A stretch of 63,425 nt of DNA, the filler included, from Sphacelaria rigidula (taxonomy: Eukaryota): NCBI GenBank assembly GCA_964200075.2. It is 7 parts of 7 records of this genome, joined end to end, with 100 filler letters (N's around TTAATTAATTAA, not from the genome) between each part and the next. Parts side by side here need not be neighbours in the genome. Positions count along the whole stretch, not along the records: positions 45,378 to 54,351 come from CAXNAA020009606.1; 6 more parts are not named here. One strand, given 5' to 3'. The notes beneath the pieces were generated by a model that ran no database searches, was not told the origin of the DNA, and saw only the letters and a list, made by a program, of their open reading frames with translations. This document shows, one piece after another, positions 52,717 through 54,327 of the stretch; the first letter of the stretch is position 1, and the number at the start of each line of letters is the position of its first letter. The translations under genes were made by a program, and so were the position numbers.

Positions 52717-52813
52717 GGGAGGTGGTGGGGGCAAACCCATTTGTTGCTTGTCTTAGTTATTTGATCATAGACCACAGATCCCGTTCGAGACGGAGCACCG
52801 TTCCTACTCCAGG
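52717..52813 (-). mobile_element. C-tract LINE 3' tail, in tandem with the LINE body
   Basis: Duplicate of 52814-52905. Confidence 0.8.
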
Positions 52814-54240
52814 TGGAGGGGGGTGTACGCATTTGTTACTTGCCTTAGTTGTTTGATAATTGACCATGCGTCCCTTTCGAGACGGAGAGCACCGTTCCTA
52901 CTCCTGGTAGAGACACCTCCAACATTTAGGTGCTCACTACGTTCCTTTCATACATCACACAAAAACCTTGTACATATCTTACCCCCCCGTCCTCTTTCGC
53001 CGTCCGTGGTCAACATTCATTTCGTAGTACAGCGATCGTTTTTCCGCTGCTCTCTGATGCATCAAACGGTTCCATGCCACCTTCGTTCACGTTCCGCATT
53101 TCTCCCTCTAGCACGTCCCATTCCTCCTTGTATAGTTCACATTCTGCCACCATATGAGTTATGCTCTCTATTGCTTCGCCACAGGAGCAGTTCTGTGCAT
53201 CTACTTTCTCCTCCACTCGACTATTAGTATACCTCTTCCTTCTTTCCGGCAGATCCAGGTTCTCCACCCGAGCTCTCACTTTCGAGTTTTTCGCCGCGTC
53301 CATTGAGTCATTACGTTTTCATCCCTATCCCCTCCCTCAACCCCCCGTATATCTCTAGGTGTTTTTTCTTTTTTCTCGTCTACTTTGCGTCTGAGCGCTC
53401 CTTTTCCCCTTATTCTTATCATGTCTCTTACTTTTGTCTTGCACCTCGCGCCTTCATTTATGTACAGTATTTCGTCTTGGTGTCCTCCTATCTCTTTCCA
53501 CACTTTCTCGACTTCTTTATCCCACCTTACAGCATGCCCTTTCGTGATTTTCTTCCATACAGCCTGATCAACTACAGCTGGCAATCTCTTCCTCTGCATA
53601 CGGAGTATTCTTCAAGCTGTATTGCCATCTCAATTTCCCCATGTCTCTGTTTGTGTTGAGTGGGTACATTCCCAGCTCTGCTATCAACGCTGTATTACTC
53701 GTCGTTATCCAGCATCCAAGTATCTCCTTAGCTGCTGCCATCTGTACTGTTTCCAAACTCTTCACCAATTTCACGTTCGCTCCCTCTCCTGCATGTTCCA
53801 GCTTTTGTACGATCACGTCCACCAGGATACATCTCTCAATCCTAGTGTCTAGGTGCGAGTTTCTGAGAATCACGTCCATTTTGCCTATCTGTGCCGTACC
53901 TCTTTCTATTACCTTATTTATGTGTGCATGCCAAGACAACAGATCTCTGACATCTCTACGATCGGCAGTTCCTCGTCTCCCCACTTCCATGTGGACTCTA
54001 CATAATTTTTCTTATCTTCGTTACAGACGAGTACCTCGTATTCGTTGACGTTCGCTGTCATTCTCTATTTCCTAGTGTATTCTAGCGCCTTTTCTGTTTG
54101 TTTCTGCAGCCCTTGTTCTGTTTCTGTTCCCCCCGCAAAATCGTCCACGAGCATTTAACCGGACACAGTATCTTCATCCACCTTGTCTTCTAGCTTTGCT
54201 GCTCTCATCGCCAACATGAGGTCATTAATAAATACCTTGT
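52814..54240 (-). mobile_element. LINE ORF2 remnant (RT C-half, thumb, CCHC) of the C-tract family, in an ankyrin gene intron
   Basis: KVFINDL...LVDDF, LETVQMAAAKEILGC..TSNTALIAELG and CSCGEAIESITHMVAEC, running directly into the ~70-nt tail. Confidence 0.88.
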
Positions 54241-54327
54241 GGGGAGGGGGAGGAGGGGGGGCGAACTCATTCGTTGCTTGCCTTAGTCGTTTGACCATTG
54301 ACCACGCATCCCTTTCGAGACGGAGCA
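54241..54327 (-). mobile_element. C-tract LINE 3' tail abutting the LINE RT region
   Basis: Full tail from TGCTCC to the C-rich run; C-rich sequence also upstream. Confidence 0.8.

Follow-up and report, generated by a model that had tools for sequence, protein, structure and literature searches.

A decayed cluster of oligo(C)-ended LINE copies in Sphacelaria rigidula: probable kinship with the RTEX elements of Ectocarpus and a proposed mechanism of priming on C-tracts

Catalogued relatives and the locus in Sphacelaria

The closest described relatives of the element treated here, a long interspersed nuclear element (LINE) that ends in a run of C, are found in the transposable element library of Ectocarpus (Genome Biol 2025;26:320, PMC12477816, Supplementary Material 3). 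Copies of this element lie in a 63,425-nucleotide stretch of Sphacelaria rigidula DNA (GenBank assembly GCA_964200075.2), hereafter the window, and form an array at 52715-54351 in the part taken from CAXNAA020009606.1. In the Ectocarpus library, the 5867-bp RTEX-1a_Ec32 is entered as "single EN-RT ORF; (C)n 3'", that is, with endonuclease (EN) and reverse transcriptase (RT) in one open reading frame (ORF), and its target-site duplication (TSD) is given as "C-rich", as is that of the 5511-bp RTEX-1b_Ec32. The 5582-bp RTEX-2_Ec32 is annotated with "(C)n termini/TSD". Two non-autonomous families accompany them: RTEX-N1_Ec32 (607 bp), with the remarks "60 bp 3' end 83% RTEX-1/RTEX-2" and "can be present in tandem", and RTEX-N2_Ec32 (188 bp). 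Table 1 of the same paper lists 16,418 copies of RTE-X, or 3.41% of the Ectocarpus genome, and the other curated Ectocarpus LINEs (RTE-1_Ec32/RTE-2_Ec32 and CRE-1_Ec32) end in (CAA)n or (CA)n (PMC12477816). Outside this group, the LINEs of the apurinic endonuclease (APE) type that are specific for microsatellites include Waldo (ACAY), Mino (AC), Kibi (TC), Koshi (TTC) and Dong (TAA), and C/G homopolymer does not appear among the targets in the list of such elements given there (PMC3812793).

The window consists of seven contigs, each of ~8975 bp, joined by N44-TTAATTAATTAA-N44 linkers, so that the tail copies described below lie in unrelated contigs. The array at 52715-54351 is an old insertion cluster of abundant LINE copies, now decayed. 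Four of the nine protein matches of its LINE remnant are named Ectocarpus sp. CCAP 1310/34, a brown alga. Compared by description with the library entries, the element resembles RTEX-1_Ec32 and RTEX-2_Ec32 in its single ORF with APE endonuclease and RT, its (C)n 3' end, its C-rich flanks, its high abundance and its tandem-capable partners, and no trait is known in which it differs from them. We therefore consider it likely that the cluster belongs to an Ectocarpus-type retrotransposon without long terminal repeats (LTRs), very probably that of RTEX-1_Ec32/RTEX-2_Ec32, for which a mechanism of priming on C-tracts is proposed below. An Atlas cluster in which Cnidaria is the commonest taxon gives a weak hint toward RTE-X.

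A first, sequence-only reading of this DNA had noted no described example of such a LINE, and this has to be withdrawn, given that RTEX-1_Ec32 and RTEX-2_Ec32 are catalogued with a (C)n 3' end and a C-rich TSD (PMC12477816). The family with (C)n ends is thus already recorded, and the window data add detail and a hypothesis. The terms 'C-rich' and 'homopolymer' do not occur in the main text of that paper, which does not treat the mechanism, the near-absent 3' untranslated region (UTR) or the 66-nt units. No other C-tailed LINE was found in the literature, in a weak search in which 'poly(C)' could not be used as a term. Modest interest is left in the mechanism, in the discrete 66-nt units and in a derivative in the seventh contig that retains the last ~14 nt of the tail and a C-run.

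LINEs rarely end in oligo(C) in place of poly(A) or a microsatellite, and such an element offers a natural test of tail-target pairing versus endonuclease specificity in target-primed reverse transcription. Furthermore, with about 3.4% of the Ectocarpus genome made up of RTEX families and their partners (PMC12477816), these elements shape its homopolymer content and break assemblies. The 'Sower' repeat of Ectocarpus comprises about 2.5 Mb (PMC3145265) and RTEX-N1_Ec32 2.48 Mb (PMC12477816); from size and rank the two could be the same, but this is only a guess.

Coding frame, 3' end and head-to-tail copies

The relative P0006 (1328 aa) carries in a single ORF an Exo_endo_phos domain (PF03372, residues 142-383) and an RVT_1 domain (PF00078, residues 710-959). 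Its start lies ~140 residues before the endonuclease, and the ORF1 and poly(A) that mark the L1 clade are not what was found, the tail being oligo(C). The C-terminus is reached by two of the seven relatives that were fetched (P0006 and P0003), both of which end in ...TKASNK (...VVNGQMTKASNK). The best-preserved tails in the window, at 5-82 and 45135-45205, translate as APSRKRCVVNGQTTTASNK and APSRKESVVNGQTTKASNK (ends ...VVNGQTTTASNK and ...VVNGQTTKASNK), in each case followed by the stop codon TGA, GTACG and a C-run, exactly as first described from the sequence. A scan of metagenome contigs with a 21-nt pattern ending at GTACG, which is hence blind to what follows, returned three loci (L001-L003), and the same scan of viral contigs gave no matches. 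All 137 codons present are open in each of the three loci, up to TGA, which is followed by GTACG and then C8, C10 or CCTC7..., before the sequence becomes unrelated. Together with the tail translations, these loci place the ORF stop (...AAA TGA GTACG) 5 nt before the C-run and show no additional 3' UTR common to the copies. A very short 3' UTR is said to have been described by Malik and Eickbush in 1998 as a hallmark of the RTE clade.

The C-run itself is present at 13 of 13 3' ends of the main tail type (subfamily 1), ten in the window and three in the metagenome loci; the longest uninterrupted stretch in each ranges from 4 to 17 C, and the flanks beyond are unrelated. The survey of flanks was widened with contigs from four public runs of three studies (X1, X3, X7 and X4), aligned to 43300-45277. 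On this interval fell 42,765, 15,176, 33,011 and 1,368 contig pieces in the four runs, nearly all of them on the 71-nt tail. The consensus of the loose ends 3' of the tail is a C-run in 1019 (X1), 616 (X3), 912 (X7) and 101 (X4) contigs and differs between runs past it, while loose ends 5' of the tail lead into the LINE body (...GGAGTAGGAACG) in 138, 91, 127 and 22 contigs. A shared longer 3' UTR or poly(A) past the C-run was found neither at the 13 single ends nor in the loose-end consensus of the four runs. The element is therefore a LINE of the APE type, with a C-terminal CCHC, in which 5 nt separate the end of the ORF from a C-run of variable length. Beyond this run the copies share nothing, and the earlier description of an almost absent 3' UTR with an oligo(C) end is borne out. 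In the same alignment the depth falls almost to zero over the last 64 bases of contig 5.

Truncation at the 5' end is heavy and often leaves a 66-nt unit beginning with TGCTCC; the copies are piled head-to-tail with C-rich spacers between them. The array at 52715-54351 contains three such copies, all on the minus strand. Read along this strand, it opens with a C-rich flank, CCCTCCCCCCACCACCACACGCGA, at 54328-54351 (16 of its 24 bases are C), which is cut by the contig end. Copy A (54262-54327) is a tail-only unit of 66 nt with TGCTCC as its first bases, matches the majority tail at 64/66 positions and is thus young. The spacer at 54239-54261, C7TCCTC5TC4AC, represents the tail run of copy A as well as the 5' flank of copy B. 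Copy B (52824-54238) is a decayed, 5'-truncated remnant of the LINE ORF with the end of the RT, a thumb-like region, the CCHC motif and the tail, and corresponds to residues 856-1328 of P0006. These residues map by tblastn to 54238-52740 of the minus strand in five pieces with 39-70% identity, the CCHC piece with an E-value of 3e-24, so that the ORF remnant running into a tail, as it had been read from the sequence, is well founded. The ORF of copy B is broken by frameshifts and stops, and its tail part (52824-52892) matches the majority tail at 57/66 positions. Between copies B and C lies, by reading of the sequence, the C-rich spacer CCCCCCTCCACC (52812-52823). Copy C (52732-52811) is an old, 5'-truncated tail of 80 nt that starts 14 nt upstream of TGCTCC and matches at 55/66 positions; it is followed by the C-rich run CCCCCACCACCTCCCAC (52715-52731), where the array ends and unrelated flank begins at 52714. 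Tandem Repeats Finder reports a period of 92 nt with 1.9 copies and 83% matches at 52738-52912. Given the difference in tail matches and the broken ORF of B, copies A and B differ strongly in age, which implies at least two separate insertions into one C-rich site.

The tail is by no means restricted to this array. Where six or more places had been noted from the sequence alone, a blastn comparison of the minus-strand element with the window finds ten, at 5, 18033, 18153, 25238, 27127, 32961, 45135, 52800, 52887 and 54330. The 66-nt tail pattern matches 5-70 (+), 45135-45200 (+) and 54262-54327 (-) with two mismatches each, and none of 100 shuffles matches; the end motif CAAATGAGTACGCCC occurs eight times in the window versus 0.21 expected.

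C-rich runs also adjoin all seven readable 5' junctions (45135, 54327, 54238, 52811, 57594, 33032 and, via a gap, 32961), at which a true duplication is indistinguishable from a tail. Of these 5' runs, four are the tails of an upstream copy; upstream of the other three, at 45113-45134, 54328-54351 (truncated by the contig end) and 33033-56 (C24), no tail was recognised. The first of the three belongs to a solo unit on the plus strand (45113-45205), consisting of C10TC4GTCTTTG (45113-45134), the 66-nt tail (45135-45200) and C5 (45201-45205), whose 5' junction is confirmed by a contig of run X7 (record 25, spanning 43300-45153). Before the TGCTCC start, the loose ends of 110 contigs in X7 give a clean C-run as their consensus and those of 73 contigs in X3 a C-rich one; in X1 (116 contigs) a C-run likewise precedes the start, but TGCTCC is not clean. 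The exact TGCTCC start is seen in two window copies (45135 and 54327). In addition, the runs contain head-to-tail joints that go back by 70-71 bases (tail, C5, tail), the commonest form of which, from 45205 to 45135, is present in 21 (X1), 6 (X3) and 18 (X7) contigs.

Proposed insertion at C-tracts and rival explanations

The arrangement of C-runs on both sides of the copies suggests a mechanism in which the tail pairs with its target. The RNA of the element would end in a short oligo(C), and a nick by the endonuclease would fall in the G-rich bottom strand, either in a (C)n.(G)n tract or in the tail of an earlier copy. The freed 3' end of the G-run could then pair with the oligo(C) and prime the synthesis of complementary DNA (cDNA), comparable to the T-rich nicks and poly(A) of L1. 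Every insertion would thereby split a C-tract and make it longer. Such a process would account for the flanking of copies by C-runs on either side, for the catalogue's 'C-rich TSD' and for the fact that one site was hit repeatedly. Targeting of C-tracts, which the sequence-only reading had also put forward, is on this pattern likely but unproven: the C-rich sequence at every readable 5' junction and the young copy beside an old one speak for it, while the empty site that would complete the case was not recovered.

A bolder version of this proposal is advanced here as a tentative working idea. The element may be the first LINE shown to prime on a G.C homopolymer: its endonuclease would nick (G)n, and its RT would begin on an oligo(C) RNA end that follows the stop codon by 5 nt. 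Synthesis would frequently break off after 66 nt and switch to a fresh oligo(C) end, from which the 66-nt units and the arrays would result. The last ~14 nt with a C-run would suffice for mobilisation, as the deletion derivative of contig 7 described below suggests. Together with its partners, the element would then be a major source of the long C/G homopolymers of Ectocarpus. As to the homopolymers of the window itself, C or G runs of at least 9 occur 19 times in 62.9 kb, and eight of the 19 touch a LINE tail. By our own rough estimate from base composition, fewer than one such run would be expected.

A number of results weigh against the assignment or the mechanism. When the RT of P0006 is compared with solved structures, the best match is L1 ORF2p (E 1e-25), and only L1 and R2 LINE proteins are present among the 10 matches; with no other LINE types among them, these matches carry no information on the clade. 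No empty site for the solo insertion was seen in the four runs at the one locus surveyed, where only joints that go back, and none that skip the unit, were recovered. In the more distant run X7 (four single-base differences in 1.85 kb) a contig spans the 5' junction, which shows that the solo insertion is shared; a C-tract that preceded the insertion is in consequence not demonstrated. The second tail subfamily (17976-18052 and 25183-25259) has a longer first loop and ends in GAGTACACCCTYCTG, with only CCC before the sequences diverge. Finally, two small hairpins in the tail lack statistical support: the fold z-scores lie between -0.07 and -1.3, and pairing is kept in 87.9% of cells versus 86.4% in shuffles, of which 18 of 500 are equally high. 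In a MAFFT alignment the second subfamily is out of register at hairpin 1, where by eye the arms are kept around a different loop. A ribozyme behind the fixed TGCTCC start was also considered and rejected, as an Rfam scan of L001-L003 (E up to 10) gave four matches at chance level and no ribozyme.

Instead of being the target, the C-runs may be a product of the retrotransposition machinery, with the RT adding untemplated G's to the cDNA, jumping between oligo(C) RNA ends and joining ordinary, non-C sites. This explanation accommodates the C-runs between the units of every array, the tail-to-tail joints with 0-31 extra letters that are common in the four runs, and the TGCTCC start shared by many units (45135, 54327 and the joint from 45205 to 45135), which has the appearance of a fixed stop-and-jump point. 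It would also fit the solo copy at 45113-45205, where no TSD is visible outside the C-runs, a finding that at the same time counts against insertion into a pre-existing C-tract. However, copies A and B are of different age, which points to separate events at one site that a single jump leaves unexplained; C/G runs that could serve as targets do exist, as 11 of the 19 runs of at least 9 are not next to a recognised tail; and the authors of the catalogue interpreted the C-rich ends as a TSD (PMC12477816). On balance, we regard an origin of the C-runs in the machinery as somewhat unlikely, though the main competitor to targeting of C-tracts.

Amplification at the DNA level, by which the tail-plus-C units would be a short satellite spread through unequal crossing-over or replication slippage after one insertion, finds some footing in the 92-nt period of 1.9 copies at 52738-52912, in the joints of period 70-71 in contigs of three runs and in the internal deletion junction shared by the units of contig 7. 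Most copies are, however, single and dispersed with unrelated flanks, neighbours differ in age, and spacer lengths and truncation points vary between adjacent copies (66, 1415 and 80 nt in the 54-kb array), all of which renders a satellite origin improbable. Sequencing or assembly might also have produced the C-runs as homopolymer artefacts, a suspicion raised by six of the ten tail copies (5, 18033, 18153, 27127, 32961 and 54330), which touch a contig end or gap edge, as repeats of high copy number are expected to do because they break assemblies, and by the copy at 27068-27127, which looks error-rich. Yet the internal copies (45135, 52732-52892 and 57413-57617) end alike, three contigs of other assemblies and about 2600 contigs of the four runs agree, and the catalogue reports (C)n (PMC12477816), so that an artefact is highly improbable.

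Further features of the window and comparison with known systems

The remaining copies of the tail extend this picture. At the start of contig 1, the plus-strand tail (5-70) with its C12 (71-82) occupies 5-82 and is followed directly by a direct repeat that flanks a Copia-type element. Contig 3 begins on the plus strand with a partial tail (18153-18205), followed by a C-rich tract of ~55 nt (C14 AA C12 ...), the whole covering 18153-18260, and ends on the minus strand (27051-27127) with a partial tail (27068-27127) and C17 (27051-27067), which shows many G/C changes and may be low-quality sequence. A minus-strand array at 32880-33056 spans a 10-N gap: C24 (33033-33056) precedes a divergent tail ending in CAACCAAGACAG (32980-33032) and C8 (32972-32979), and past the gap come a subfamily-1 tail (32900-32961) and C-rich CTCGCCCCTCCCC. 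Both copies of the second tail subfamily are on the minus strand, the one at 17976-18052, which ends in GAGTACACCCTTCTG, with the putative hairpin arms kept, by eye, and a different loop, and the other (25183-25259) inside contig 3. A possible third divergent tail, ...CAACCAAGCCGCCCG, is located on the plus strand at 47290-47341, upstream of C12GC9. The divergent tails (17976-18052, 25183-25259, 32980-33032 and 47290-47341) probably represent non-autonomous RTEX-N families.

A rearranged derivative of the LINE occupies 57413-58120 on the minus strand in two tandem units, with C11 at 57595-57605 and C10TC6 from 57419. Each unit consists of an RT fragment or of two to four tandem repeats of a ~55-60-nt piece of the ORF (K.LETVQ.AAAK.ILGC), joined without a break to the final ~14 nt of the tail. 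The deletion junction is common to both units, suggesting that a non-autonomous lineage devoid of most of the tail has been mobilised.

Other C-runs and mobile elements are found in the window as well. A Copia-type LTR retrotransposon covers 81-8938 (plus strand), with an rve integrase domain at 3170-3625 and RVT_2 at 4825-6303. Its LTR-like direct repeats are 81-235/7602-7756 (92%) and 447-560/8825-8938 (89%), the left one adjoining the LINE C12 (71-82). A 33-nt inverted repeat (427-459/639-671), 97% complementary, carries C9/G9 in its arms (GCAGACACTTTCTACGATAG-C9-AAAA), and the GCAGACACTTTCTACGATAG motif recurs with C13 at 8821-8833 in the right-hand repeat of the Copia-type element; these C-runs are not linked to a LINE tail. 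The 16-nt motif CTATCGTAGGATGACT occurs six times versus 0.35 expected (6214/6448, 26775/27012, 27295 and 33249), including two inverted pairs ~230 bp apart, and often stands directly after a C-run (27000-27027 and 27271-27310); a similar string follows C10 in L002. It was considered as the 5' head of the LINE and dropped, because its inverted pairs look like part of another element, and might instead mark one end of a different mobile element likewise sited at C-tracts. Just beyond the array, a short ORF on the minus strand (52419-52613) contains sequence that by eye is ankyrin-repeat-like (...TPLHLACRWGRVGSIRELVAAGADVN...). Further repeats include a 148-nt inverted repeat (2609-2905; 1 nt between the arms, 88% complementary), which adjoins a 99-nt tandem duplication (2398-2595), a long (GCT/GTT)n microsatellite with which contig 7 begins (54452-54742) and, inside contig 7, a telomere-type repeat, (TAACCC) x10.8, at 60423-60487.

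To turn to the comparison with known systems, the source contig of P0006 measures 5649 nt, against 5511-5867 bp for RTEX-1/2_Ec32, and the window holds 5'-truncated copies, a full-length one being absent. RTEX-N1_Ec32 and RTEX-N2_Ec32 are described with 3' ends like the main tail, and the second tail subfamily of the window resembles the main tail over ~65 nt but closes with three C. RTE-1_Ec32/RTE-2_Ec32 and CRE-1_Ec32 share the single EN-RT ORF and likewise have tails of simple sequence, which are di- or trinucleotide repeats, unlike the C homopolymer seen here.

More remote parallels are provided by LINEs of other groups. Waldo, Mino, Kibi, Koshi and Dong belong to the R1, Tx1 and R4 groups and not to RTE-X. 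They resemble the window element in that the tail equals the simple sequence flanking it on both sides, and pairing of tail and target in target-primed reverse transcription is presumed; they differ in that the sequence here is a C/G homopolymer, for which strict specificity is not claimed. Human L1, with ORF2p structures that include 8uw3 and 8sxt, likewise combines an APE endonuclease with an RT, shows heavy 5' truncation and has a homopolymer tail that is presumed to pair at the nick. In L1 an ORF1 is present, the 3' UTR measures several hundred bases and the tail is poly(A), whereas the Sphacelaria element has a single ORF, a 3' UTR of 5 nt and an oligo(C) end.

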